Assembly (NCBI RefSeq): GCF_916618885.1
Contig: NZ_CAKAKH010000001.1
Span: 1,381,005 to 1,413,004 of the forward strand
DNA length: 32,000 nucleotides
Reading direction: 5' to 3'
From: Marinilactibacillus sp. Marseille-P9653
GTDB lineage: Bacteria > Bacillota > Bacilli > Lactobacillales > Carnobacteriaceae_A
Shown in pieces: positions 1-27,444 of the stretch (positions are counted from its first letter, which is position 1; each line of letters opens with the position of its first letter). The position numbers and the translations under genes were made by a program. A model generated the notes under the pieces. That model was not told where the DNA came from and searched no databases. It worked only from the letters and a program-made list of their open reading frames with translations.

Positions 1-44
1 TAATCTTAAAGTTTTATTTTAATATTAAAGCAAAAAACAAACAT

Positions 45-1094
45 TTGTCAGAAATCAACAACTTGGCGCTAGAGTTAACCGGGAAATACTCTCAAAAAGA
101 AATTTTAAGTAACTACATAAAGTCTTGGGCAGTTATTTTCACTGCTCAGAAAATTAGTTATTTTGAAGCATCAGAAAATATGAAGATTACTAAAGTTTAC
201 GATTATGAAGTGGATTCTAAAGAAATCCATCAGGTAAATTCTGAGTATCTAATTTGTCCAGATATCATCAAAGCGTCTTGGTTAACTAACAGAATGATGG
301 TCTTCAATTCTTCTGATGAATGGGCCATGGATTTCCCTTTAAGCTATAAGCCTGAGAGTATCCTGGTTTTGCCTGTGACTAGAGCAGAGAGAATTGTCGG
401 TTTTTTAATGATGGTAGATTCTAAAAGAGACGCCTACAAAGATATAGATGTGGTTTCATCTATTAGAGTTCTTCATAGTTACTTGAATATTGCTCTAGAG
501 AATGCATTTAACTTTGAAAAGCTACAATTTAATAGTCGTACAGATCATCTGACTGGACTGACAAATCTCAGAGCTTTTGAGAATGAATTGAAACAGTTTA
601 CGACAATTAATACAGAGCGCCGATTTTCCATTATCATAATTGATTTGGATCATTTTAAGAGAGTTAACGATACTTATGGCCACCAAGCCGGTAATGAATT
701 GCTCAAGCAAGTTTCTATTTTATTAAGTACTTTTGTATATGAAGATGAAAGACTAGCTCGATATGGTGGCGAAGAATTTATTTTCTTCATACCCGATAAG
801 ACAGCAGATGAAACGCGGATCCTTGCTGAAAAAATTAGAGAAAAGATCGAAGAAACGAATTTTAATACGCACAACTATTTATCTAAAAGAGAACTGATTA
901 CTGTAAACATCACTGCCAGCATCGGCTTAGCTACTTATCCGGATCAATGCAGTAAAGTAAAGGACTTGGTGACACTTGCGGATAGAGCAATGTATGTCGG
1001 TTCAAAACAAAGAGGCAGAAATAGAGTCGCATCAATATTTGGAGGAGAACAGGATGAGTCTGAAAAAGAACTGGAGCTCGAAACGGTTTTATAG
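45..1094 (+). CDS. Diguanylate cyclase: N-terminal GAF-like sensor domain plus GGDEF domain (GGEEF active site)
   Basis: 349-aa ORF. The C-terminal half carries canonical GGDEF-domain blocks: RTDHLTGLTN, IIIDLDHFKRVNDTYGH, RYGGEEF, ASIGLATYP, ADRAMYVGSKQRGRNRV. The N-terminal ~165 aa look GAF-like (ILVLPVTRAERIVGFLMMVD), unverified. The TTG at 45 has no clear SD, so the start is uncertain (alternative ATG at 180). The 3' end overlaps the next gene by 41 nt. Confidence 0.85.
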   Translation: MSEINNLALELTGKYSQKEILSNYIKSWAVIFTAQKISYFEASENMKITKVYDYEVDSKEIHQVNSEYLICPDIIKASWLTNRMMVFNSSDEWAMDFPLSYKPESILVLPVTRAERIVGFLMMVDSKRDAYKDIDVVSSIRVLHSYLNIALENAFNFEKLQFNSRTDHLTGLTNLRAFENELKQFTTINTERRFSIIIIDLDHFKRVNDTYGHQAGNELLKQVSILLSTFVYEDERLARYGGEEFIFFIPDKTADETRILAEKIREKIEETNFNTHNYLSKRELITVNITASIGLATYPDQCSKVKDLVTLADRAMYVGSKQRGRNRVASIFGGEQDESEKELELETVL

Positions 1095-1527
1095 AGATCA
1101 AACGGGTGCTACGTTGGTAGAATTAATAGCCTCAATCGCTATTCTAGCTTTAGTTGTTACCTCTTTTTTGACATTCTTTATACAGTCTTCCAAAGCGACT
1201 CAATCATCCGAACAGGTGACTGCAGCAACTTATTCTGGGCAAAAGCAAATGGAATATCTCTATCATTTATCTGAGACTTTGACCATTGAAAAAACTGTTC
1301 TGGAATTAGAAAACAAAGCTCAATCTTCAGTTAGTAAAGGGTTGGAAAAATCTTATACTTATCAAGAAGATGGTATTTCTTATTTAATAAAAATGACTCT
1401 ACCTGATTCTAAAACTTCAAAACAACCGAATCTAATAAAATTCCTCATAGAGGGATCAAAAGACGGTAAGAAAGTCATCCAGCTTGAGAATAAAATACCT
1501 TTTAAAGTAGGTCTGCTAGATGAGTAA
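1054..1527 (+). CDS. Minor pilin-like protein with a class III (prepilin) signal peptide and an atypical G|A cleavage site
   Basis: ATG at 1054 lies 6 nt after GGAGGAG (1041-1047). The N-terminus is MSLKKNWSSKRFYRDQTG|ATLVELIASIAILALVV: Gly at -1, Glu at +5, and a hydrophobic helix. The longer ORF from 976 has no RBS and lies inside the cyclase gene. Confidence 0.7.
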   Translation: MSLKKNWSSKRFYRDQTGATLVELIASIAILALVVTSFLTFFIQSSKATQSSEQVTAATYSGQKQMEYLYHLSETLTIEKTVLELENKAQSSVSKGLEKSYTYQEDGISYLIKMTLPDSKTSKQPNLIKFLIEGSKDGKKVIQLENKIPFKVGLLDE

Positions 1528-1951
1528 ACTAAAAAAAGTGTGTTCTCAAGAAGGTTTTACTTTAGTAGAATTACTCGCAACGCTCGCACTATTATCTGTA
1601 GTAATCGTACTTGCTGGATCGATACATTTGTTTGGTCAGAAGCAATTCTCTCAACAAACAGATCAAGTATCTCAAATTAGTGATATCCGATTTACACTCT
1701 CATCCATTGAAAAGGATGTTCGTCAAACCGTTCCCTCAGAAATTTCTTATGATGGGCAGTTACGAGTTGGTGAAAATGTTTATTCAATAGAAGATAACAC
1801 TTTGAGAAAAAACGGTGGAATAATTAGTGATCAAATTTCTAGTTTCGATGTTTCTTTAACAGAAGAACGTATTGAATTAAAAATAAAAAGCTCTTCAGAA
1901 AAAAATCGTCCAATTGAAGAAATCTCTACTACAATCTATTTCAGGAGGTGA
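1520..1951 (+). CDS. Minor pilin (prepilin-type N-terminal cleavage/methylation domain)
   Basis: N-terminus MSKLKKVCSQEG|FTLVELLATLALLSVVIV is a canonical G|FTLVE prepilin motif with Glu5. The start overlaps the upstream stop by 8 nt. Confidence 0.8.
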   Translation: MSKLKKVCSQEGFTLVELLATLALLSVVIVLAGSIHLFGQKQFSQQTDQVSQISDIRFTLSSIEKDVRQTVPSEISYDGQLRVGENVYSIEDNTLRKNGGIISDQISSFDVSLTEERIELKIKSSSEKNRPIEEISTTIYFRR

Positions 1952-1955
1952 CTCA

Positions 1956-3470
1956 GTGTCTAAATTAAAAGATGAACAAGGATCAGGATTAGTTTTGACA
2001 TTAATGGTCTTAACGGTGCTCGCAGTTTTAGCAGCCGCACTGGCCACTGTCACCCTTGGAAGTTATCGATTGACCGCCAATAATAGAGATTCAGTTTCAG
2101 CTTATTATATTGCAGAAGCTGATTTAAATGAAAAATATGAAGTCGTTGAGTCTGTTGTGCAAACTACCTATGACATGGATACAAATCAAGACACTTTTTA
2201 TGCTTTAATTGAACAGTCTTTTAAGGAATTGGAAGGTAAAAACTCTGATGGGTATGCTACTCAATTTGGAAAGAGTCCTTTTTCAAACGTAACGATAAAA
2301 AAAGTTTCTTCAGGAAATCCGAGGACATACACTCTGACTTCCGAAGGCGAAGTTGGAGATTCTAAAAGAACAATTGCTAAAGACTTTACTGTTGGTTATA
2401 TAGAAAAAAATCAAGGTGGAGGATTGCCTGCATTACCTAAAAATGCAGCAGCAATAGTGAAGAATAAAATTGAATTGACTGGTAGTGGAAAGATTATAGG
2501 AGATGTTCATTTTGATTCTTTAGAAGCTAAATCGATTGTAATGAACGGAGACTCTTCTATAAATGAAGGATTTACATTCGTTAAAAATATTGAAAAAGGA
2601 AATAAACTACTAGACATCCCTCCCAAAAATACTGGATTTCAAGAAAAAAATGGTCCTTTTTTAAAACAAACTAACATTAACATACCATGGGAATCATACT
2701 ATGAGTTTATTAAAACATTCCCTGATGTCCCAGTATATGATTCATTGCCTGACGAAACAATATCATCTTCCGATGGAAGTAATCAGCATAAGTTTATAAA
2801 TCAAGAATCTTTCTATTACAATAGTTGGATTTTTAACAATAAGAATTTTATCTTTAAAGTAGCTGGAAATAGTTCTTTTAAAGAGTTCAAAGTTGATAGC
2901 GATGTGCCACTTAAGATAGATACCATGGGAAAAGATATTACAATTGTAGTAGATCATTTGAACCTCAATAGAGGAAGTTTAGAGTTAGTCGGTGAAGGCT
3001 CTGTCACCTTTTATGTAAAGAGTAAGTTTAACCTTAACTCTAGTGGTGATAGTAATCTTAATAAAAATGGCAAAACTGAGCAATTAAAAATTCTATATGC
3101 AGGTACAGATGATTTTATTATGAATGGTGGAATTGTCAATGGCTCTATATTTGTAAAAAATGCAGTCGTCAACGTTAATTCAGCTCATGGAATCAATGGA
3201 TTACTGATAAGTGGTGGGCCGAAGGTGACTCATAACGGTGGTACGTCTACAAAAGCTATTGTAATTGCGCCCTCAGCAGACTTTGATTTTTCAGGTAGTG
3301 GAAGCATAGAAGGTGCTGTTATTGGTAAACAGGTTATTTTATCTGGAGCAGGAGAAATAAAGGTTGGAAAACCAATTGTTGATTTAAATATTTTTAATAC
3401 TAGTTCTAAAAAACAGTCTGATAAACCAAATTTTGATCTTATAAAAAGCGACGCATCCATAGAAAAATAG
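1956..3470 (+). CDS. Large PilX_N-type pilin-like protein without Glu5, with C-terminal glycine-rich beta-helix-like repeats; putative pilus tip or adhesin subunit
   Basis: An in-frame GTG at 1956 lies 7 nt after AGGAGG (1943-1948) and 4 nt after the upstream TGA. The N-terminus SKLKDEQG|SGLVLTLMVLTVLAVLAAALATV resembles PilX/GspK/ComGG-type pseudopilins that lack Glu5. The C-terminal region (KAIVIAPSADFDFSGSGSIEGAVIGKQVILSGAGEIKVG) fits the G-x-I-x-AP...G...I-x-G pattern of PilX/TadG-like C-terminal domains. Confidence 0.65.
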   Translation: MSKLKDEQGSGLVLTLMVLTVLAVLAAALATVTLGSYRLTANNRDSVSAYYIAEADLNEKYEVVESVVQTTYDMDTNQDTFYALIEQSFKELEGKNSDGYATQFGKSPFSNVTIKKVSSGNPRTYTLTSEGEVGDSKRTIAKDFTVGYIEKNQGGGLPALPKNAAAIVKNKIELTGSGKIIGDVHFDSLEAKSIVMNGDSSINEGFTFVKNIEKGNKLLDIPPKNTGFQEKNGPFLKQTNINIPWESYYEFIKTFPDVPVYDSLPDETISSSDGSNQHKFINQESFYYNSWIFNNKNFIFKVAGNSSFKEFKVDSDVPLKIDTMGKDITIVVDHLNLNRGSLELVGEGSVTFYVKSKFNLNSSGDSNLNKNGKTEQLKILYAGTDDFIMNGGIVNGSIFVKNAVVNVNSAHGINGLLISGGPKVTHNGGTSTKAIVIAPSADFDFSGSGSIEGAVIGKQVILSGAGEIKVGKPIVDLNIFNTSSKKQSDKPNFDLIKSDASIEK

Positions 3471-3495
3471 AAATTTAAAAGGAGGAAGAAACTAA

Positions 3496-5115
3496 ATGGC
3501 TACTCAAAGAAAAAAGCTAGGCGATCTATTAAAAGAAGCAAATTTAATCACCGAGGAAGATATCGTCAAAGTTCTTGAATTGAAGAAAAAGAATCAAAAG
3601 CTTGGAGATGCACTAGTAGAACAAGAGTATATCACTGAAAAAGAGTTGCTGGATGTTTTAGAAATTCAGCTAAAGCTAGAAAGTATTTCTCTATACCAGT
3701 ATCCAATCGATACTAGTCTGATTGATTTAATCTCTAAAGAATTTGCTCGAGAAAATGTTTTACTCCCAATCAAACAAGAAGCACATCGCCTGATTGTAGC
3801 CATGCATGACCCGTTAGATTTTTATGCGATTGAAGACCTGGAACTTTCAACTGGATTCAGTGTACAACCTGTTATTGCGACTAAAGATGATATCTTACAA
3901 ACTGTGAATCATTTATATGATTATGATGAAAGCTCTGAATTAATAGAAGAAGAATTCAATGCTTCTGCAGTTAACATATTAGATCAAATCCTTGAAGCTG
4001 GTGTAACGATGCATGCTTCTGATATTCACCTTGACCAGACCGAGACTTTGGTAAATGTACGCTACCGAGTAGATGGCGTACTAAGAAACGAAAGAACCCT
4101 TCCAAAATCTGCTATGAATTCCTTAGTAGCCCGAATCAAAATACTGGCTGGTTTGAACATTACCGAGAGTAGACTTCCTCAGGATGGTCGAATTAGTTTA
4201 ACGATTATGGAAAAATCTATCAATTTACGGATTTCGACATTACCAACTGTGTATGGTGAAAAAATCGTTATCCGAATACTTGATTTGACAAATATCCTCA
4301 AGAAATTGAATGATTTGGATTTGACTGAAGGTACGCTTGAAGAATATAGAAAGATCATTCAAGAGCCTTCTGGTTTAGTTTTGATTACCGGTCCTACTGG
4401 ATCTGGGAAGTCGACCACACTTTACGGATCTATCAACGAATTGAATAACGCTCATGTCAATATCCTGACGATTGAAGATCCGGTTGAGTATCAACTAGAT
4501 GGTATTAACCAAGTACAAGTGAACTCAAATATCGGGCTGAATTTTGCGACGGGACTTAGATCCATCTTAAGACAGGATCCGAACATCATCATGGTTGGTG
4601 AAATAAGAGATAGAGAAACAGCAGATATAAGTATTAGAGCTTCTCTAACAGGTCACCTTGTATTCAGTACGTTACACACCAATAGTGCAATTGAAGCGAT
4701 TCCAAGGCTTTTTGATATGGGTGTAGAACCTTATTTGGTTGTTTCTTCGCTTTCTGGAATTATGGCACAGCGATTAGTCAAAAAAGTTTGTAAAGATTGT
4801 CAGTATAAAAGAGCGGCGACTCAGATAGAGAAAGAAATTTTCCGAAAAAGAGGTAGAGAAATCGACGAAATATGTTTGGGTAGAGGGTGTAACCGATGTA
4901 GATTCACTGGTTATAGAGGTCGAATGGCGATTCATGAATTGATTGTGATCGATGATCATATGAAAGAAATGATGATGAACCATGCTTCTCTGCAAAAGAT
5001 TAAACAGTATGTCGAAAACAAGCAGATTCCGTTTTTAATTGACGATGGATTAGACAAGGTCCAAAAAGGCTTTACAACTATTGAAGAAGTATTAAGAGTC
5101 GCAACATTAGATTAG
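3496..5115 (+). CDS. pilB: Type IV pilus assembly (extension) ATPase PilB, GspE family
   Basis: 539 aa, with AGGAGG RBS. It has a T2SSE_N-like N-terminus, Walker A GPTGSGKST, Asp/His boxes (LRQDPNIIMVGEIRD, TGHLVFSTLHTN) and the tetracysteine motif CKDC...CNRC. Confidence 0.95.
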   Translation: MATQRKKLGDLLKEANLITEEDIVKVLELKKKNQKLGDALVEQEYITEKELLDVLEIQLKLESISLYQYPIDTSLIDLISKEFARENVLLPIKQEAHRLIVAMHDPLDFYAIEDLELSTGFSVQPVIATKDDILQTVNHLYDYDESSELIEEEFNASAVNILDQILEAGVTMHASDIHLDQTETLVNVRYRVDGVLRNERTLPKSAMNSLVARIKILAGLNITESRLPQDGRISLTIMEKSINLRISTLPTVYGEKIVIRILDLTNILKKLNDLDLTEGTLEEYRKIIQEPSGLVLITGPTGSGKSTTLYGSINELNNAHVNILTIEDPVEYQLDGINQVQVNSNIGLNFATGLRSILRQDPNIIMVGEIRDRETADISIRASLTGHLVFSTLHTNSAIEAIPRLFDMGVEPYLVVSSLSGIMAQRLVKKVCKDCQYKRAATQIEKEIFRKRGREIDEICLGRGCNRCRFTGYRGRMAIHELIVIDDHMKEMMMNHASLQKIKQYVENKQIPFLIDDGLDKVQKGFTTIEEVLRVATLD

Positions 5116-5124
5116 AGGGATACA

Positions 5125-6156
5125 ATGGATTATTTACATCGAGTACTAACAGCAGCTTATTACAAAGAAGCTTCAGACATACACTTAACAGCAGGTTCTG
5201 AACCCGTTTATCGTATTGACGGTAGATTGATTCCGCAGAAAACGGAAGAAAAGCTCATGCCAGATGATTTAGAAGCAATTGTCAAAGAAATGCTTACTGA
5301 AAAATTATGGGAAGATCTCCAGAGAAATAGAGAAGTAGACTTGTCTTACGGAATTAACGGTATATCAAGATTTCGGGTAAATGTCTTTTACCAAAGAAAC
5401 GCGCTCTCCATAGCTTTTAGAATCATTTCCAAAGAGATTCCATCACTAGACGATTTAGGGCTACCCAATATCTTGAAAGAACTCGCAAAAAAACCTCACG
5501 GACTTATTTTAGTAACTGGTCCAACAGGTAGCGGAAAAAGTACTTCTCTGGCAGCTATGATCGACTATATGAATCAAAATATGAATCGGCATATCATTAC
5601 CTTAGAAGACCCTATAGAATATTTGCATTCTCACAATCAGTCCATCATTGTTCAACGAGAAATCGGATTCGATGCATTGTCTTTTAAAGATGGTTTGAGG
5701 GCCAGTCTAAGACAAGACCCTGATGTGATTCTTGTCGGGGAGCTTAGAGATTTAGAAACCATTTCTACGGCTATCACGGCAGCAGAAACGGGCCACTTAG
5801 TTTTAGGTACCTTACACACGCAAGATGCTTCGAGTACGATTGACCGTATGATCGATGTCTTTCCAGCACATCAAAGAGACCAGGTGCGTACGCTACTAGC
5901 CAATATTCTAGTCGGTATCTTGTCACAAAGATTATTCCCTAAAGCTAGAAGCACCGGTAGAATTGCCTGTACGGAAATGCTGATTAACAATGCAGCAATC
6001 AAAAATCTGATCAGAAGTGAAAAAATGCATCAGATACCAAATACCTTGCAGACATCTAGGGATCAGGGGATGCATACAATGGAAATGGACATGAAATTAA
6101 AGTCGCAAGAGGGGCTAATCAATTCTGTTGAACTTGTTCCCTATTCGAATGTTTAA
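5125..6156 (+). CDS. pilT: Type IV pilus retraction ATPase PilT
   Basis: 343 aa with no N-terminal T2SSE_N domain. It has Walker A GPTGSGKSTS, LRQDPDVILVGELRD, TGHLVLGTLHT and AIKNLIRSEK, a variant of the PilT signature AIRNLIRE. Confidence 0.93.
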   Translation: MDYLHRVLTAAYYKEASDIHLTAGSEPVYRIDGRLIPQKTEEKLMPDDLEAIVKEMLTEKLWEDLQRNREVDLSYGINGISRFRVNVFYQRNALSIAFRIISKEIPSLDDLGLPNILKELAKKPHGLILVTGPTGSGKSTSLAAMIDYMNQNMNRHIITLEDPIEYLHSHNQSIIVQREIGFDALSFKDGLRASLRQDPDVILVGELRDLETISTAITAAETGHLVLGTLHTQDASSTIDRMIDVFPAHQRDQVRTLLANILVGILSQRLFPKARSTGRIACTEMLINNAAIKNLIRSEKMHQIPNTLQTSRDQGMHTMEMDMKLKSQEGLINSVELVPYSNV

Positions 6157-6181
6157 AGAAAGATTACAGGTGAAATGACTT

Positions 6182-7384
6182 ATGACAATGTATGCTTATA
6201 AGGCAAAGAAAACGGATGGAACAATCACTAAAGGTAAGTTGGAAACTTCGAATAAAAAAGAAGCACTCATTGAGCTAGAACATTTGAATTTGATTGTATT
6301 TAGCATTAAAGAATTAAACTCCTTTCTTTATAAAGACGTTCACATCGGTAAACCAATTAAATCAAAAGATTTTGTTCTATTCCTTAGACAATTCTCTACC
6401 TTAATAGAATCAGGTATATTGTTATTAGATGCTTTAGAAATACTTTCTAAACAGATTGATAATAAAATTTTAAAAGAGGCTTTAGAACAAATTGCGCTTC
6501 AAGTTAGGGAAGGTATCGCACTATCAGCTGCACTTAGTAAGTTTCCTAAGCTATTTCCTAATTTATTAGTTAATATGATTCAATCAGGTGAAGCGAGCGG
6601 GCGTTTAGACGACGTCCTAAAAAGAATGGCAGATTATTACGAAAAGCAACACAGATTAAGACAAAAAGTATCTACGGCGTTAACTTATCCAGCTGTAGTA
6701 GGAAGCATGGCTGTATTAATTACTATATTTCTATTAGTATTTATTGTTCCGATATTCGCTGACTTATTTTTGAGTTTTGGTGAAGATTTACCTGCTTACA
6801 CTCAGTTCGTATTAAATTTAAGCCAAGTTATTCAAAACTACTGGTGGATAATTCTTTTGATTGCAATCATACTTTTATCTGGTTTCAAAGAGCTAACTAA
6901 ACGAGAATCAACTGCATTCATCATAGATGGCTTTTTACTCAAGATACCAGTTGTAGGTGTCTTTATTCAAAAATCCATCTTAGCGAGAATGACACAAACC
7001 TTGAGCTCACTCTTATCAAGTTCAGTTCCCATACTTGAAGCAGTAGATATCACTTCTAATGTTATGAGCAATCGTGTGGTCAAAAGGGTACTCCAAGAAA
7101 GTAAAGATTCCCTTGAAAGAGGAGAGTCGTTATCTATCCCCATGCAAAGACATTGGATGTTTCCAGATTTAATTACTCAGATGATTACAGTTGGAGAATC
7201 CAGCGGAGCACTTGACGAAATGTTGCATAAAGTAGCGGAGGTATACGATCAAGAATTAGAAGAAGCATCGAATAAACTGCAGTCACTAATTGAGCCGATA
7301 TTGATTGTTTTTTTAGCCGCGATTGTTGGTGCTATCGTATTAGCTATTATCATTCCGATGTTTTCACTATTTGAAACATTTTAA
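6182..7384 (+). CDS. pilC: Type IV pilus inner-membrane platform protein PilC (GspF family)
   Basis: 400 aa with two GspF-type repeats (FLRQFSTLIESGILLLDAL and MTQTLSSLLSSSVPILEAV) and three hydrophobic segments. It sits between pilT and the pilin gene. Confidence 0.92.
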   Translation: MTMYAYKAKKTDGTITKGKLETSNKKEALIELEHLNLIVFSIKELNSFLYKDVHIGKPIKSKDFVLFLRQFSTLIESGILLLDALEILSKQIDNKILKEALEQIALQVREGIALSAALSKFPKLFPNLLVNMIQSGEASGRLDDVLKRMADYYEKQHRLRQKVSTALTYPAVVGSMAVLITIFLLVFIVPIFADLFLSFGEDLPAYTQFVLNLSQVIQNYWWIILLIAIILLSGFKELTKRESTAFIIDGFLLKIPVVGVFIQKSILARMTQTLSSLLSSSVPILEAVDITSNVMSNRVVKRVLQESKDSLERGESLSIPMQRHWMFPDLITQMITVGESSGALDEMLHKVAEVYDQELEEASNKLQSLIEPILIVFLAAIVGAIVLAIIIPMFSLFETF

Positions 7385-7394
7385 ATTAAAGACA

Positions 7395-7424
7395 TTGAAA
7401 GGGGGAATGGGTATACGTTATAAG
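7395..7424 (+). promoter_or_regulatory. Candidate sigma-A promoter for the major pilin gene
   Basis: TTGAAA (7395-7400), an 18-nt spacer, then TATAAG (7419-7424), in the 115-nt pilC-pilA gap. Motif match only. Confidence 0.35.
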
Positions 7425-7438
7425 CAAAAAGACAAGTC

Positions 7439-7458
7439 GATCAGTACTTATACTGATC
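7439..7458 (+). promoter_or_regulatory. Perfect 8-bp inverted repeat (GATCAGTA-cтta-TACTGATC) in the pilA 5' leader; operator or RNA hairpin
   Basis: GATCAGTA (7439-7446), a 4-nt spacer CTTA, then TACTGATC (7451-7458), 41 nt upstream of the pilA ATG. No U-tract follows, so it is not a terminator. Confidence 0.4.
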
Positions 7459-7499
7459 AAAAGAAAATATCACTTATAAAATATTAGGAGGAAGAAAAT

Positions 7500-7844
7500 A
7501 TGAGAAATCAAATCAAGAAACTAATCAAAAAGGAAAATGGATTTACATTAGTCGAGCTACTTGCAGTTTTAGTTATTTTAGGAATTATCGTAGCAATCGC
7601 AATCCCAGCAATCGGAAATGTTGTTGAAAACGCGAATGGTAAAGCTGAAACAGCTGAAGAAGCTTTAGTTATTGATGCAGCAAGACTATACGACATTGAA
7701 CATACTATCGGCAGTACCGGCGTAACTGTCGAAACTCTTAAAACAGAAGGATATTTAGAGATCAGAGATAGTGAAAGTCTTTCAGATTCAACAACTGTTA
7801 CTGTTAAAACTGAAGGAAAACAGAAAACTTACGTAATCGAGTAA
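7500..7844 (+). CDS. pilA: Major type IV pilin (prepilin)
   Basis: 114 aa, with AGGAGG RBS. The N-terminus is MRNQIKKLIKKENG|FTLVELLAVLVILGIIVAIAIPA. It has its own upstream gap and candidate promoter and sits just upstream of pilD. Confidence 0.85.
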   Translation: MRNQIKKLIKKENGFTLVELLAVLVILGIIVAIAIPAIGNVVENANGKAETAEEALVIDAARLYDIEHTIGSTGVTVETLKTEGYLEIRDSESLSDSTTVTVKTEGKQKTYVIE

Positions 7845-7859
7845 TAATTATTAATAATT

Positions 7860-7882
7860 AGAGAAGTTAATAAAGCTTCTCT
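7860..7882 (+). terminator. Weak hairpin after pilA (possible partial terminator or attenuator)
   Basis: AGAGAAG (7860-7866), a 9-nt loop, CTTCTCT (7876-7882), then TTAT. The stem is short and the U-tract poor. Confidence 0.3.
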
Positions 7883-7902
7883 TTATACATAGGAGAACCA
7901 GC

Positions 7903-8655
7903 ATGCAAACTTTCATAGCCATCATTTTTTTCGTATACGGACTAGTACTTGGATCATTTTATAATGTTGTTGGCCTCAGGGTACCTATAGGAACATTCTG
8001 GAAACAGAAACAATCTTATTGCTATACCTGTAAGAGAAGTTTGTCTTGGACTGAATTGATACCCGTCATCTCTTATTTGAATCAAAAAGGAAAGTGCAAA
8101 GGATGCGGTGAACCTTTCTCTGCACTCTATCCAATAATGGAGTTCAGTACTGGAATCCTCTTTGCACTTTCTTACTTGGTTTTTGGATTTACGCTAGAAA
8201 CGATATTTAGTTTGATTGTTGTTTCGATGGTCATAATCATTACAGTGTCTGACATAGCTTATCAAAAGATTCCGAATAAAATCTTACTATTTTTTGCTCC
8301 TTTGATTTCGATTCTCCTTATAGTTATATCAAACATTACGTTTCTATCAGCCTTAATTGGGGCTGGGTTAGCTTTTGCACTTATATTTCTTATTATCATT
8401 CTATCAAAGGGTGGTATGGGTATGGGAGATTTGAAGTATTTCACTTTATTTGGATTTATTTTTGGCTGGAAACTGTTTTTATTACTTTTCTTACTGTCAA
8501 CTATTTATGGGGCTGCAGTCAACAGTGTATTATTAATAACCAAAAAAGTTTCTAGAAAAACGAAAGTCCCTTTTGGACCTTATATCGGAGCAGCGGCACT
8601 TACCGTACTGTTTTTCGGTAACACACTATTAGACTGGTATCTATCACTCTTATAG
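7903..8655 (+). CDS. pilD: Prepilin peptidase / N-methyltransferase PilD (A24 family)
   Basis: 250-aa polytopic membrane protein. It has the N-terminal Cys pairs CYTC...CKGC and the two catalytic Asp contexts VSDIAYQKIPN and GMGMGDLKY. Confidence 0.92.
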   Translation: MQTFIAIIFFVYGLVLGSFYNVVGLRVPIGTFWKQKQSYCYTCKRSLSWTELIPVISYLNQKGKCKGCGEPFSALYPIMEFSTGILFALSYLVFGFTLETIFSLIVVSMVIIITVSDIAYQKIPNKILLFFAPLISILLIVISNITFLSALIGAGLAFALIFLIIILSKGGMGMGDLKYFTLFGFIFGWKLFLLLFLLSTIYGAAVNSVLLITKKVSRKTKVPFGPYIGAAALTVLFFGNTLLDWYLSLL

Positions 8656-8699
8656 TCCAGAAAAATTGTATTGAGAAAGATGACCTATGGAGGACTTAC

Positions 8700-9743
8700 A
8701 TGCTATTTAGAAAAAAACAAATACTTTATATTCAATTTAAATATAAAAGTATCTATTATATGATCATTGATCCACAGAAAAATGAAATTATAGAACACGA
8801 TTCGCTCTCACTCGATATTCCTGTATTGATTGAAGGACAACTGACAAATGAAATGCTGGTGCAAAAAACACTAGAATTGTTCGTGCGCGAAAAAAAACTA
8901 AGAAATACTGTGGTTCATTTCATTTTACCAGATCACTTTTCTGTCATACGTAAAGAACAAGTTCCCCTTCAACTGGAGCAAAAAGAAATCAAGGAATACT
9001 TGTATCTTCAACTAGACAGCAAGATTAAATTACCTTTTGATTCTCCGGTATTAGATTTTCAGTTGTTAGAAACTCTAGAAGATGCTCAAGAAATTCTCTT
9101 AGTTGCTTATCCAGAGGAATATATACAGTCTTTCCAGAAGTTGTTTGAATCCGTACAATTAGTTCCGGAAATTGCTGATCTTTCATATCTGAGTGTTTAC
9201 CGTTTATTTAAAAAAGATCAATCTAACGAGATTTCTCCTGACGAGCATTTATTATTGATTCAATGGCATCCATATGATAGCTCACTAACTGTGTTCCATA
9301 AAGATGTTCCTCAATTCAATCGACAGACTAATTTCCAAAGAATAGCTCAAAGCTGGGAACAAGATAGTCTTTCTAAATGGGAATGGACTGGTTCTGAGGA
9401 AGAATTAGAGGTAGCTATTGAAAATCATATTGACACAATTGAACGTTTCTTGGATTTTTATAAGTATTCGATTATGAATGGAGAAAAGATGGTTACGCGT
9501 ATTATACTTACTGGAGACTTCCCAGAGTACGAGCTTTTATATGAACGAATTAGTAATCGAATTGATATCCGGTTATCTAAAATAGAGGTACCTTCAAACT
9601 TCACAAGAGGGTTTGTACCGCTGATAGGACTGAAATATAAGGATACTATCGTAACACCAAAGTCTAAATCTATAAATAATCATAGAAAAGGACTATTTAA
9701 TAGACCGTTTAAAAAAACCGTTGAGGAGATTGATGCAGGATGA
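8700..9743 (+). CDS. pilM: Type IV pilus assembly protein PilM (actin-like ATPase fold)
   Basis: 347-aa soluble protein with GGAGG RBS. It is followed by PilN/PilO-like bitopic proteins with an ATGA stop/start overlap. The call rests mainly on size, position and operon logic; sequence motifs are weak by eye. Confidence 0.65.
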   Translation: MLFRKKQILYIQFKYKSIYYMIIDPQKNEIIEHDSLSLDIPVLIEGQLTNEMLVQKTLELFVREKKLRNTVVHFILPDHFSVIRKEQVPLQLEQKEIKEYLYLQLDSKIKLPFDSPVLDFQLLETLEDAQEILLVAYPEEYIQSFQKLFESVQLVPEIADLSYLSVYRLFKKDQSNEISPDEHLLLIQWHPYDSSLTVFHKDVPQFNRQTNFQRIAQSWEQDSLSKWEWTGSEEELEVAIENHIDTIERFLDFYKYSIMNGEKMVTRIILTGDFPEYELLYERISNRIDIRLSKIEVPSNFTRGFVPLIGLKYKDTIVTPKSKSINNHRKGLFNRPFKKTVEEIDAG

Positions 9744-10285
9744 TCAATATAAACCTTTTCGAGAAAAAAGAAATCAATAGACTACCGTTTGTAATTATCA
9801 TAATATTTTTAATCCTATTATCTGGCTTGTTTATTTATTTATTTGGAATGAATCGTTTCTATACATTAAAAGATAATAGAAATATGCAGGTCATTGAAAA
9901 TCAAGTTAGCGAAATTCAGGATGCAAGAAGTATTGAACTATTGAATAATCAAGTTATTCAGTTGAATGAAAGTCTTACTTCTCTTGAATCAGCTCGATAT
10001 CAGATTCCATTTTTAATTAAAGATCTTCATACCTATGTACCTGAAGAAAGTCAAATAGCAGAGTTTGTATTATTAGAAGATTTCACACTAGTATTAAAGG
10101 TTTCAGGTGTGGACTATGATGCTTTAACTGCATTAATTAAAGAACTCAACGAGATTGACTACGTTAATTCAGCAGAACTGTCGACATTGTCAGTTACTGA
10201 ATCAGATACAAATACTTTCGATTCAGAAATTCTACTGACCTTAGACCAACTTTTATTGAGAAAGGAAAATAATAATGAAAATTAG
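9740..10285 (+). CDS. pilN: Type IV pilus assembly protein PilN
   Basis: 181 aa. The N-terminus MININLFEKKE (the INLL/INLF motif that binds PilM) is followed by one TM helix (LPFVIIIIFLILLSGLFIYLFG) and a coiled-coil-like ectodomain. Confidence 0.7.
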   Translation: MININLFEKKEINRLPFVIIIIFLILLSGLFIYLFGMNRFYTLKDNRNMQVIENQVSEIQDARSIELLNNQVIQLNESLTSLESARYQIPFLIKDLHTYVPEESQIAEFVLLEDFTLVLKVSGVDYDALTALIKELNEIDYVNSAELSTLSVTESDTNTFDSEILLTLDQLLLRKENNNEN

Positions 10286-10823
10286 CTGGTCTAAGCAAAG
10301 TTTGCTATTGATCCTTCTTCTAACTACGACACTATGTATACTCTTCTATTACGGAAAAAAAACAGTGGTGGATATCCCAAGACAGGCTTACTTAAGTTCT
10401 GAGCGTATTATTGAGGATCAACAAGATCTTCTTAACAAAGTTGAATCGATTGATGGTTCAGAAGATAGTCTTTCAAAACAATTAGCTGAACTAAATAACA
10501 GTATTCCAAATAATATAGATCCAAGCACTTGGATGGATGAAATAAAACATATAGCTGATGCAAATCAAGTTACGATTCAACTACTAAACAGTATGGAAAC
10601 AACGGTAAATTCTGAAGCTGAATCAACTATAGATTCTATTGACTCCAATAACTTTCAATTGGATCTGATTTACGATGATAGGACAGCTCTAGAGTCTTTT
10701 ATAGAAGATGTATACCAAATGACTCAAATCACAGACATTTCATCTTTGTCCTATGAACAGACTGAATCAAATACCGGAACTTTGTTTCTTAGAACTTATA
10801 CTCAACCAAGTAATTTAGAATAA
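10275..10823 (+). CDS. pilO: Type IV pilus assembly protein PilO-like (bitopic)
   Basis: 182 aa with a single N-terminal TM helix (LLLILLLTTTLCILFYY). It overlaps pilN by 11 nt and is the last gene before the terminator. Assigned by topology and position. Confidence 0.55.
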   Translation: MKISWSKQSLLLILLLTTTLCILFYYGKKTVVDIPRQAYLSSERIIEDQQDLLNKVESIDGSEDSLSKQLAELNNSIPNNIDPSTWMDEIKHIADANQVTIQLLNSMETTVNSEAESTIDSIDSNNFQLDLIYDDRTALESFIEDVYQMTQITDISSLSYEQTESNTGTLFLRTYTQPSNLE

Positions 10824-10831
10824 CTTCGGAC

Positions 10832-10862
10832 AAACGTCTAATACCTTAGGCGTTTTTGTTTT
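10832..10862 (+). terminator. Rho-independent terminator closing the pilus operon
   Basis: AAACGTC (10832-10838) pairs with GGCGTTT (10849-10855), including one G-U pair, across a 10-nt loop. TTTTTGTTTT follows. Confidence 0.65.
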
Positions 10863-24555: not shown

Positions 24556-25383
24556 ATGAAAAAGATAGAAAAATCAGCTCATTTCCTAAGAGAAAATAGT
24601 GCATTATTTCAATGTCCGGTATGTCAGGATGATTTCCTAGAAGTGAATAGCCATCAAATGATTTGTATTCAAGGTCATTCATTCAATCTTTCAAAAAAAG
24701 GAACGGTTCATTTCCTTTTGAAACAGCCGCACAATGATTATGGTAGTGAAATGCTTAAATCTAGAAGAATCATTGCCCAAGACGGGCTTTGGCATCCAAT
24801 GCTACAAGAAGTCTTTCAGACTGTTTCAAAAAAAGATGGTGTTCACCTAGATGTTGGCTGTGGAGAAGGTTCTCATCTTCACCATTTACATGAAATGGGA
24901 TTAGAGGGTCTAAAAATTGGTTTTGATATTTCTAAAGATGCCATACAGCTAGCAGCTGCTTTATACACTGAAGCATTCTGGAGTGTGGCTGACTTGGCTC
25001 GATCACCTTTTGCATCTAATGCTTACGATACCATCTTCAACATTCTTTCTCCGTCAAATTATAGTGAATTTGATCGATTGTTGAAAAAAGGCGGTCAGGT
25101 TATTAAAGTTATTCCATCAGAGCGTTATCTTATTGAGGTAAGAGAATTAACGGGGAATGACGAGAAACCTTATTCTAATCAAGACGTAGTAGAAAAATTT
25201 TTTGATCACTATCCAGGTGCTGAAAAAATCAGTATCCAATACAAACATGATTTGAAACCATCTCTTGCTCCATTGTTGGTTGAAATGACTCCACTAGGAT
25301 GGAATGCAGCTGAACAAATAGATTTGAAAGGTCTGAAAAGTGTGACGGTTGAAATGGAAATATTAGTTGGTACGAAAGCGTAA
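24556..25383 (+). CDS. rlmA: 23S rRNA (guanine-N1)-methyltransferase, RlmA/RrmA family
   Basis: 275 aa with an N-terminal Zn-ribbon (CPVC...CIQGHSF), the NLSKKGTVHFL motif and the SAM motif LDVGCGEGSH. Confidence 0.85.
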   Translation: MKKIEKSAHFLRENSALFQCPVCQDDFLEVNSHQMICIQGHSFNLSKKGTVHFLLKQPHNDYGSEMLKSRRIIAQDGLWHPMLQEVFQTVSKKDGVHLDVGCGEGSHLHHLHEMGLEGLKIGFDISKDAIQLAAALYTEAFWSVADLARSPFASNAYDTIFNILSPSNYSEFDRLLKKGGQVIKVIPSERYLIEVRELTGNDEKPYSNQDVVEKFFDHYPGAEKISIQYKHDLKPSLAPLLVEMTPLGWNAAEQIDLKGLKSVTVEMEILVGTKA

Positions 25384-25523: not shown

Positions 25524-25652
25524 CATAAGCTGATTTGATTCATTGGTTTTTATCAGTCACCCCATCAGAAGCTGATAAAAAAATGTGAAATAGCAACAGC
25601 TTAATTAACGTATCGCTTCGCAGTGCTTGACACCGAGGCGATACGTTTTTTT
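25524..25652 (+). ncRNA. Candidate small RNA or orphan leader of about 130 nt, family unknown
   Basis: Bounded by the promoter above and the strong terminator at 25607-25652. It contains a 10-bp hairpin, TTTTTATCAG (25547-25556) with CTGATAAAAA (25572-25581), with competing ATCAG/CTGAT copies. The only ORF is a 6-codon one. The boundaries are inferred, not measured. Confidence 0.3.
25607..25652 (+). terminator. Strong rho-independent terminator 90 nt upstream of queG
   Basis: AACGTATCGC (25607-25616) pairs with GCGATACGTT (25638-25647). The stem extends by TTCG/CGAG to about 14 bp with a 13-nt loop. TTTTTTT follows. Confidence 0.8.
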
Positions 25653-25743: not shown

Positions 25744-26895
25744 ATGACTTTAGCGCTTAAAGAAAAAATACAATTGAAGGCTCAAGAAATTGGAATAGAT
25801 AAAATTGGATTCACACATGCAGAGCCCTTTTATGACCTAGAAGATAAATTACATAAACAAAAAGAAAAAGGTCATACGTCCGGCTTTGAACATGATGTAA
25901 TTGAAGAACGGATCTATCCTGATAGAATTTTTTCTGAGCCTAAGTCCATTATTGCGATAGCTGTAGCTTATCCTTCAAAGATGGGTACCAAGCCTCCGAG
26001 AGTCAAAGGGGAGAGACGTGGGGAATTTGCTCGAGCGTCATGGGGAACGGATTATCACGATGTACTAAGAGACCGAATGGATCGCTTAATTGAGTACATT
26101 CGAGAAGAGACAAGCTCAGAAACTGAATTCAAGCCAATGGTCGATACTGGTGAACTAGTCGACGTTGCAGTAGCTCAAAGAGCAGGACTTGGATTTATCG
26201 GTAGAAATGGATTGCTGATCACAAAAGAGTTTGGATCATACGTATATCTAGGTGAAATTATTACAAATATTGAATTTGATCCCGATGAAGAGGTCGCTTT
26301 CGGCTGCGGGGACTGTACACGATGTGTAACGGCTTGTCCTACTGGAGCGTTACTCGGAGACGGGCGGATGAATGCTCAGAAATGTCTTTCTTTCCAGACT
26401 CAGACCAAAGGTTACATGCCCAAAGAGTATCGTCGCAGAATGGGTCATGTCATTTATGGATGTGATATCTGTCAGATTGTATGTCCATATAATAAAGGGA
26501 TTGATTCTCATTTTCATGAAGAAATGGAACCTGAACCCGAAAAAACAATGCCATTATTAAAACCTTTACTAACCATATCTAACAAAGAATTCAAAGAGAC
26601 TTATGGAGAAATGGCAGGTTCTTGGAGAGGGAAGAAGCCTCTGCAAAGAAATGCGATTATCGCATTAGCCAATTACCGTGACCGTACAGCAATCCCAGAG
26701 TTACTGAAAGTGGTTGATCAAGATCCACGTCCAATGATCAGAGGAACGGCTGCCTGGGCAATTTCCATGATTTTGAAAAGGGAAGCGAATCCCGATGTCA
26801 TCTTTTTCCTTGAAGAAGCTCTAGCTAAAGAAACGGATCCAGAAACAATCGAAGAATTCACTACAGCAATCGCTTCAATGAAGGAAAATCTGTAA
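25744..26895 (+). CDS. queG: Epoxyqueuosine reductase
   Basis: 383 aa with AAAGGAGG RBS. It has two 4Fe-4S ferredoxin motifs ([12 protein letters not shown] and [11 protein letters not shown]) and a C-terminal HEAT-like region. It is followed by trmL, as in Bacillus. Confidence 0.92.
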
Positions 26896-26934
26896 AACAT
26901 AATATATATTTTTACGAATTAAGGAGATAATGAA

Positions 26935-27444
26935 ATGCCCAATCATATCGTATTATATGAACCACTGATACCAGCGAACACAGGTAATATTTCCAGAACA
27001 TGCGCAGGTACAAATACGCACTTACATTTGATCAAACCGCTAGGGTTTAGTACCGAAGATAAACAATTAAAACGAGCAGGACTCGATTACTGGAACGAAG
27101 TTGAAATTACTTATCATGAAAATTTGGAAGCCTTTATTGAGTATGCAAAGAATGGGAAGTTCTATCTGATTTCTAAATTTGCGAATAAGGTTTATTCAGA
27201 TGAAGACTTCACGGATACAACTCAAGACCACTTTTTTATCTTTGGAAAAGAAACAACGGGTTTACCAGAAGCATTTATGAAAGAATATGAGGAAGATTGT
27301 TTGCGTATTCCAATGAATGACCAACATGTGAGGTCGTTGAATTTATCTAATACAGCGAATATTTTAATTTATGAAGCACTTAGACAACAAAAGTTTTTGA
27401 ATCTTGAATTGACGCACACTTATGAAAATGACAAATTGAAGTAA
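26935..27444 (+). CDS. trmL: tRNA (cytidine/uridine34-2'-O)-methyltransferase TrmL (SpoU/TrmH family)
   Basis: 169 aa. [23 protein letters not shown]...LHLIKPLGF...KRAGLDYW and the C-terminal [14 protein letters not shown] are typical of TrmL/CspR. Confidence 0.92.

Follow-up and report, generated by a model that had tools for sequence, protein, structure and literature searches.

A predicted type IV pilus operon of Marinilactibacillus that begins with the gene of a membrane sensor cyclase

Beyond the clostridia and a few streptococci, the type IV pili of Bacilli have hardly been studied. In a 32,000-nt stretch of DNA (hereafter the window, with positions counted from its first letter) of Marinilactibacillus sp. 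Marseille-P9653, a marine lactic acid bacterium of the Carnobacteriaceae, the genes of a predicted type IV pilus directly follow a gene for a GGDEF-domain cyclase. This arrangement raises the question of whether the cyclase belongs to the pilus system and, if so, at which step it would act. The reading favoured here, to which we give a probability of roughly 0.6, is that of a chromosomal operon for a type IVa-like pilus, with a promoter before the sensor cyclase gene as its first cistron. A cyclic dinucleotide made by the cyclase would act through the MshEN domain of the ATPase PilB on pilus extension, and PilT would carry out retraction.

Twelve open reading frames (ORFs), all on the + strand, were found by ORF calling to fill positions 1-10823. 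Their products were compared with Pfam and NCBIfam models at the cut-offs of these models, and the following features were recorded:

1-1094, + strand: membrane sensor cyclase, residues 220-582 (end of the domain of seven transmembrane (TM) helices, GAF-like part, GGDEF domain); gene start about 700 nt before position 1.
693-695, + strand: Asn codon at the base-selectivity position (PleD Asp344, Ser348 of the Hypr enzyme GacA), located by HMMER alignments to 3ign, 9t28 and 6d9m.
765-779, + strand: GGEEF motif of the active site; YEDE and not RxxD stands at the I-site position before it (sequence and family alignment).
1054-1527, + strand: minor pilin 1, leader ...DQTG/ATLVE; N_methyl 20.7 bits, just under the cut-off of 21.2.
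1520-1951, + strand: minor pilin 2, leader ...SQEG/FTLVE; N_methyl 27 bits, TIGR02532 25.4 bits (cut-off 16.3).
1914 or 1956 to 3470, + strand: large PilX-like minor pilin or tip protein, 518 residues; PilX_N 35.1 bits, DUF7305 52.6 bits.
3496-5115, + strand: extension ATPase PilB, 539 residues, with MshEN, Walker A GPTGSGKS and a CxxC...CxxC zinc motif; T2SSE 431 bits, MshEN 77 bits.
3514-3669, + strand: predicted MshE-type motif for binding of cyclic di-GMP (c-di-GMP), 53 residues, PilB residues 7-58; NF053729 48.6 bits against 38.
5125-6156, + strand: retraction ATPase PilT, 343 residues, with the motif AIKNLIRSEK; TIGR01420 469.9 bits (cut-off 319.1).
6182-7384, + strand: platform protein PilC; T2SSF 224 bits, two domains.
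7392-7408, + strand: conserved box TTGAAAGGGGGAATG just 3' of the pilC stop, near-invariant in four Marinilactibacillus sequences whose surroundings are about 74% identical.
7500-7844, + strand: major pilin, leader MRNQIKKLIKKENG/FTLVELLAVL; N_methyl 34 bits, TIGR02532 30.8 bits.
7903-8655, + strand: PilD, prepilin peptidase and N-methyltransferase; A24_N_bact 94 bits, Peptidase_A24 59 bits.
8700-9743, + strand: PilM; PilM_2 37.8 bits (cut-off 27), TIGR01175 59.9 bits, below its cut-off.
9740-10285, + strand: PilN-like bitopic protein (MININLFEKK..., one TM helix), by homologue profile.
10275-10823, + strand: PilO-like bitopic protein, by homologue profile.
10832-10862, + strand: intrinsic terminator-like hairpin (ten pairs, 10832-10855) with a T-run, closing the operon.

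The genes of this block are tightly joined. The cyclase stop at 1094 lies 3' of the ATG of minor pilin 1 at 1054, which gives a 41-nt overlap, and a GGAGG ribosome-binding site (RBS) is present at 1038-1042. The two small minor pilin genes share 8 nt (1520/1527), and the PilX-like gene follows either after a 4-nt gap (start at GTG 1956) or with a 38-nt overlap (start at TTG 1914). Further downstream, pilM and pilN are connected by an ATGA overlap (9740/9743) and pilN and pilO by an overlap of 11 nt (10275/10285). The twelve co-directional genes, all listed junctions and the terminator at 10832-10862 of the preliminary description, which was made from the letters of this DNA and its ORFs, were thus present as claimed. 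No comparably placed terminator-like site was seen between genes inside the block.

A PilT-based scan with one genome per species led to four further loci (L001-L004), which come from three other Marinilactibacillus genomes and from Alkalibacterium pelagium. All four showed the cyclase gene, then eleven pil genes and then ypiA-ypiB-mazG-cca-dinG, and in each of them the cyclase gene overlaps the first pilin gene, by 41-47 nt. Because this overlap is kept in four related genomes of two genera, a common transcript of the cyclase gene and the pilus genes is very probable. In three of the loci a (PAS-)GGDEF-EAL gene stands directly upstream of the cyclase gene (L001, 2087-3889; L003, 2028-3824; L004, 2445-4037), and its product in L001 and L003 combines a degenerate SEDEF with an intact EAL motif. 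In L001 a long hairpin with seven Ts, resembling a terminator, lies 3' of this phosphodiesterase (PDE) gene, and a promoter-like site (TTGACA-17-TAAGAT, a 10/12 promoter match) is found 55 nt before the cyclase start. Both elements back the earlier proposal that the cyclase is the first cistron. The gene before the GGDEF-EAL gene codes for a methyl-accepting chemotaxis protein (MCP) in L003 and L004, and flgG-like and ftsE-like genes occupy this place in L001; a pair of genes for synthesis and degradation thus lies beside motility genes at the pilus operon in L001, L003 and L004.

The surroundings of the cyclase gene were also compared for homologues chosen in other families. In Amphibacillus xylanus, Halobacillus litoralis, Bacillus sp. 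and Sporosarcina beigongshangi the cyclase gene lies beside an equally composed pil operon at valS-folC, and in S. beigongshangi it is present in two tandem copies. As a background, any GGDEF match within 10 kb was found at 2 of 76 pilT loci of unrelated phyla. With regard to whether the arrangement is already widespread and characterised, as the preliminary description had asked, it proved widespread in close relatives, in Bacillaceae and in Sporosarcina, and a characterisation was not found in the literature searched. In the Bacillales loci L081, L082, L083, L084, L086 and L089, which belong to Bacillaceae and Sporosarcina, the whole pil block was located between valS-folC and radC-mreBCD-minCD. 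At the valS-folC position B. subtilis presumably has only comC, the gene of its prepilin peptidase. The comparison suggests that comC is a remnant of an ancestral pil operon, and that the pil block is an old feature of Bacilli at valS-folC, which would then have been lost repeatedly.

The cyclase itself extends beyond the window. Its start had been placed at 45, which was wrong: no stop interrupts the frame as far back as base 3, and the TTG at 45 is Leu234 of a 582-residue protein. This protein of the same strain (P0001) is identical over all 349 residues compared and, since it places TTG 45 at Leu234, the window cuts off the first 219 cyclase residues. The GGDEF domain was recognised by PF00990 with 130 bits and by TIGR00254 with 136.8 bits (cut-off 37.4); its metal-binding Asp residues (DLDHFKRVND) and the Asn at the sugar face are intact. 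The middle part is GAF-like, with GAF_3 and GAF_2 matches that are sub-threshold in this protein and recognised in many homologues. The N-terminus, outside the window, forms a multi-pass membrane domain with seven hydrophobic segments in a TM scan, and none of the Pfam families matched it. A confident AlphaFold2 model of this domain (15 family members; pLDDT 87.8, pTM 0.84) is a helical membrane bundle, the best Foldseek matches of which in the Protein Data Bank (PDB) were S components of energy-coupling factor (ECF) transporters, at E 0.13 or worse. These matches give no more than a hint that the domain might be a membrane sensor that binds a small molecule. Orthology with DgcP/YtrP of B. subtilis, which has a similar length, was considered and rejected, as DgcP is described as a soluble GAF-GGDEF protein with a GGEEL motif (PMC5422440).

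The candidate receptor of the cyclase product is PilB. The MshEN motif has been defined as two 24-residue elements, RLGxx(L/V/I)(L/V/I)xxG(L/V/I)(L/V/I)xxxxLxxxLxxQ, with a short spacer between them (PMC5013675). Binding of c-di-GMP, with an effect on piliation, is established for the MshEN domains of MshE from V. cholerae, PilB2 from C. perfringens and PilB from M. xanthus (PMC5013675, PMC11656802). These three proteins are extension ATPases with an N-terminal two-part MshEN, and the Marinilactibacillus PilB, likewise an extension ATPase, passes the curated model for the motif. Its own motif differs from theirs in having Lys in place of Arg and no turn glycines, and binding of c-di-GMP by it is a prediction. 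The cyclases of the C. perfringens, V. cholerae and M. xanthus systems are, to our knowledge, encoded elsewhere, whereas the cyclase family described here is adjacent to the pil genes or in one operon with them. A c-di-GMP riboswitch (GEMM-I or GEMM-II) upstream of pilA or of the operon was considered, and none of any such Rfam class was found at gathering thresholds in the window, which makes a post-translational control more likely. The pilA1 cluster of C. difficile likewise represents a Gram-positive type IV pilus tied to c-di-GMP, as is proposed here. However, pilA1 is under a c-di-GMP-II riboswitch, whereas the control in Marinilactibacillus would act at the protein level.

Is the output machine a retractile pilus? 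The preliminary description had listed everything that a type IV pilus of a monoderm bacterium needs. In the profile searches this held for the GGDEF protein, the minor pilins, PilB, PilT, PilC, the pilin, PilD and PilM, whereas PilN and PilO were reached through homologue profiles only. The leaders G/FTLVE and G/ATLVE, read from the sequence, have the Gly-1, hydrophobic +1 and Glu+5 residues of class III signal peptides. The mature major pilin comprises about 100 residues and is free of Cys. Orthologues of minor pilin 1, which narrowly missed the N_methyl cut-off, occur in L001-L004 and in L081. The architecture of PilX_N with DUF7305 recurs in Amphibacillus and Gracilibacillus, and a tip or adhesin component is the likeliest role for this protein. 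It diverges fast (35% identity to M. piezotolerans against 87% for PilT), and no fold is annotated for its C-terminal part. PilB scored strongly with the PilB and GspE equivalog models and remained below their cut-offs (533 bits against 676 for the PilB equivalog), as expected of a distant lineage.

The two proteins at the end of the operon required profiles of homologues. The protein at the PilN position had no Pfam match alone, and neither the single protein nor a five-sequence profile matched a PDB entry. An exhaustive search gave only 34 relatives. With a profile of 33 sequences the best PDB match was M. xanthus PilN (3jc8_Na, E=9.8e-4); seven of the 33 homologues match the Pfam family PilN (PF05137), and the orthologue in Bacillus sp. 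(L083) opens with the classic INLLP. Similarly, the protein at the PilO position had no Pfam match on its own, and a five-sequence profile matched M. xanthus PilO (3jc8_Oa, E=6.8e-5) over residues 47-177. The last two proteins are therefore probably, though not proven to be, PilN and PilO.

PilT with its AIKNLIRSEK motif, on which the preliminary description had based retraction, was present, and the gene was confirmed as that of a PilT-type ATPase by TIGR01420; the Marinilactibacillus and Alkalibacterium homologues are already named PilT by the NCBI pipeline. A ComG competence pseudopilus, which had also been denied beforehand, was rejected because the models for ComGA (NF041000, 264.9 bits against 300), ComGB (NF041012, 177.9 against 240) and ComGC (NF040999, 43.2 against 75) all stayed below cut-off. 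The block shares with ComG of Bacilli a prepilin peptidase, a ComGA-like ATPase fold, a ComGB-like platform protein and a small ComGC-like pilin. In contrast to ComG operons, which lack PilT, PilM, PilN and PilO, it contains all four. The encoded structure is, as predicted from this gene content, probably a retractile type IV pilus of the pil type (T4aP-like).

From these components a working mechanism can be drawn. Following the known roles of these families, the prepilins, four in number, would be cleaved and methylated by PilD. The two small minor pilins together with the PilX/DUF7305 protein would prime the fibre and cap its tip, and PilB, seated on PilC and a scaffold of PilM, PilN and PilO, would polymerise the major pilin. 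Depolymerisation of the fibre by PilT would cause retraction. The cyclase, with its seven membrane helices, GAF-like part, GGEEF motif and no I-site, would sense a membrane or small-molecule cue and produce a cyclic dinucleotide, most probably c-di-GMP. The N-terminal MshEN motif of PilB would read this nucleotide and license extension. In the relatives, the PAS-GGDEF(degenerate)-EAL phosphodiesterase encoded just upstream would reset the signal.

Several findings weigh against this mechanism. First, cyclase and pil genes do not always occur together. Tuberibacillus calidus has the cyclase gene and two uncharacterised genes at valS-folC and no pil genes, in Sulfoacidibacillus the cyclase gene lies at another place without adjacent pil genes, and the pil block of Gracilibacillus kekensis, a locus reached from the pilus side, comes with all eleven genes between folC and radC-mreBCD and no cyclase. 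Four of the positive Bacillales loci were moreover found by the cyclase search itself, so that their frequency is biased. Judged from these neighbourhoods, the pairing is common and old in Bacilli and not obligatory. Second, the MshEN motif of PilB is imperfect in this lineage: Lys stands at both Arg positions, the two turn glycines have given way to Asn and Glu, the first Gln has shifted, and the spacing is shorter by one residue than in the defined motif. As deviations fall on residues reported to be important (PMC5013675), binding of c-di-GMP by PilB is not assured. Third, the Asp that faces the Watson-Crick edge of guanine in diguanylate cyclases (PleD Asp344) is missing, and with Asn in place of this guanine-selecting residue the product of the cyclase appears uncertain.

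The first two of these points also bear on the possibility that the cyclase, instead of acting on the pilus motor, is a global switch, which raises c-di-GMP in the whole cell and stops swimming or starts matrix formation at the time when pili are made. The flgG-like and MCP genes that closely precede the PDE and cyclase genes in L001, L003 and L004 would fit such a switch, as would the occurrence of the cyclase family without adjacent pil genes and the imperfect motif in PilB. On the other hand, no PilZ or other alternative receptor was seen in the window, PilB passes the curated model for the c-di-GMP motif, and the tight overlap with the pilin gene as well as a synteny with pil genes that recurs from family to family fit a pilus-specific role. 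We consider a global switch in place of pilus control unlikely; the two roles are not exclusive and may exist together.

The third point concerns the enzyme. Within DLDHFKRVNDTYGHQAGNELL, the residue aligned with PleD Asp344 is Asn, in a register fixed by the alignments to 3ign, 9t28 and 6d9m; the canonical solved cyclases have Asp at this position and the Hypr enzyme GacA has Ser. Asn was found in 23/23 aligned members of the cyclase family and also in both paralogues of Sporosarcina. Of the 120 best homologues 113 share it, and the other seven combine Asp with other lengths or architectures. The residue at this position is in contact with the base at its Watson-Crick face, and the product of Hypr GGDEF enzymes depends on it (PMC6456294). 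Like GacA and Bd0367, which are Hypr enzymes, the pil-linked family thus carries a natural substitution at the base-selectivity position (PMC6456294). Whereas the Hypr enzymes combine Ser or Thr with GGDEF, the pil-linked family combines Asn with GGEEF. Identity with a Hypr GGDEF enzyme, that is, a synthase of cyclic GMP-AMP (cGAMP), was rejected for these two differences according to the criteria given for that group (PMC6456294). Asn at the selectivity position was not mentioned in the literature searched, which did not cover every survey of this position.

It is nevertheless conceivable that the GGDEF protein is something other than a diguanylate cyclase, either because the exchange of Asp for Asn alters the substrate, with cGAMP or another mixed dinucleotide as product, or because the domain is a non-catalytic sensor or scaffold. 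The near-universal Asn and the role of its position in Hypr enzymes speak for an altered substrate, and the MshEN of V. cholerae binds cGAMP too, weakly (PMC5013675). However, nothing is altered in the GGEEF motif, the metal-binding Asp residues or the Asn at the sugar face, and the strict conservation of the active site argues against a non-catalytic domain. In GTPases, an Asp to Asn exchange in the NKxD motif moves specificity away from GTP, which counts for the altered substrate; against it, Asn is isosteric with Asp and still able to form a hydrogen bond with guanine, and the upstream neighbour is an EAL phosphodiesterase of the c-di-GMP type. Taken together, a protein other than a diguanylate cyclase seems quite improbable. 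Given the isosteric Asn and the adjoining EAL enzyme, c-di-GMP is most likely the product. A bolder idea, which we regard as a long shot, is that the pil-linked Asn-type proteins with seven helices, GAF and GGEEF might form a distinct class of GGDEF enzymes, which would make another or an additional cyclic dinucleotide or use a different purine substrate, and that the divergent MshEN of PilB might read this product.

How did the block come to lie beside ypiA? Downstream of it the window continues with ypiA-ypiB-mazG-cca-dinG-tseB-asnS-dnaD-nth. This order is common to the pil-less Carnobacterium and Atopococcus, in agreement with the core synteny noted in the preliminary description. In Carnobacterium sp. 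17-4 and Atopococcus tabaci ypiA comes directly after cmk-rpsA-der-hup, which indicates that the block is missing from that site in related genera. In the hup-ypiA gap of Carnobacterium sp. 17-4, the site of the cyclase-pil block in Marinilactibacillus, a gene for a 325-residue PAS-GGDEF protein was observed (L087, 8835-9812, - strand). The nearest PilT proteins outside Marinilactibacillus and Alkalibacterium belong to the alkaliphilic genera Amphibacillus and Gracilibacillus (about 70% identity; Amphibacillus, 70% for PilT and 67% for PilB).

The block could be a recently acquired accessory island, and perhaps encode a pseudopilus for DNA uptake or secretion and not a pilus for motility or adhesion. 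The direct hup-ypiA junction in the pil-less genera and the position of the closest outside pil genes at a different locus, valS-folC of alkaliphilic Bacillaceae, agree with an island, and the small, weakly ComGC-like pilin agrees with a pseudopilus. The G+C content of the block (0.32-0.40) nevertheless matches that of the rest of the window (0.32-0.41), and no mobile-element genes and no integrase, tRNA or repeat boundary were noticed among the ORFs examined. The block moreover occupies the same site in Marinilactibacillus and Alkalibacterium, and any move must therefore be old. The pseudopilus is opposed by the ComG models, which stayed below cut-off, and by the presence of PilT and PilMNO, which are wanting in ComG and in systems like the type II secretion system. 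We judge a recent island or pseudopilus very unlikely. From the accessory insertion proposed earlier, the absence of the block in pil-less genera remains; with no compositional anomaly and a site common to both genera, such an insertion is weakly supported, and an old transfer or relocation of the block is possible.

The distal half of the pilus operon differs from that of sister strains. Compared with the two sister Marinilactibacillus genomes L001 and L002, the flanks and the first operon half were about 88-94% identical at the nucleotide level. Over window positions 6000-10800 identity fell to 80% in pilC, 63-75% in pilA-pilD-pilM and about 55% in pilN-pilO, and it was back at 91-94% exactly at the terminator (10801 onward), whereas L001 and L002 are 78-93% identical to each other throughout. 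At the protein level the identities were 97-98% for PilB, PilT and YpiA, 73% for PilA and 50% for PilO. The drop from pilC to pilO and the jump at 10801 point to a strongly divergent allele in the distal half, with a recombination boundary that is sharp on the 3' side, at the terminator. The box TTGAAAGGGGGAATG behind pilC might serve pilA as the -35 element of a promoter within the operon (TTGAAA-18-TATAAG), or else be an element similar to an RBS. The spacer between pilC and pilA also holds a hairpin at 7437-7460, which was dropped as it is not kept in the relatives, and a 26-codon ORF after the conserved GGGGG box was dropped as it is not kept in L001-L003. After pilA a weak hairpin (about 7860-7882, AGAGAAG...CTTCTCT) was observed, which could be a leaky terminator.

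Farther downstream, the sole Rfam match of the window at gathering thresholds was a 23S-methyl RNA motif (25537-25652, + strand; 58.9 bits, gathering score 50). It lies between a gene for an RlmA-like methyltransferase (24556-25383) and the genes queG and that of a SpoU-family methylase (25744-27444).

Pil operons with pilT were reported for the Bacillales Geobacillus, Bacillus sp. NRRL B-14911 and Exiguobacterium in 2011, and none of the Lactobacillales surveyed at that time had one (Imam et al., 2011, PMC3244431). The Bacillales pil loci seen here (Amphibacillus, Gracilibacillus, Halobacillus) have the same gene set in nearly the same order, namely two small minor pilins, the PilX-like protein, PilB with MshEN, PilT, PilC, pilin, PilD, PilM, PilN and PilO. 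They differ from the Marinilactibacillus block, which stands beside ypiA in a lactic acid bacterium, in their position at valS-folC...radC-mreB. The overlapping stop and start that join the cyclase to the operon in Marinilactibacillus likewise distinguish it from these loci. Streptococcus sanguinis, the studied Lactobacillales model for retractile type IV pili, likewise has a pil locus with PilT, of which no cyclase is known to be part. The Marinilactibacillus genes, by contrast, have their closest counterparts in alkaliphilic Bacillaceae. In the literature searched, no paper on type IV pili in Marinilactibacillus or Carnobacteriaceae and no description of a cyclase-pil operon in Firmicutes was found. 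The pilus machine and the logic of MshEN control are known; a conserved cyclase family that is often in one operon with pil genes and carries a non-canonical selectivity residue has, as far as could be found, not been described previously.

With a sensor enzyme, the N-terminal part of PilB as its presumed receptor and the complete output machine in one operon, and a phosphodiesterase next door, this locus offers a compact test system. Local, pathway-specific signalling by cyclic dinucleotides is thus directly testable in a Gram-positive bacterium. Moreover, the family-wide Asn at the selectivity position poses a concrete biochemical question that a simple assay can address. If the Asn-type proteins were indeed a distinct class, many Bacilli would own a private second-messenger channel for their type IV pili.

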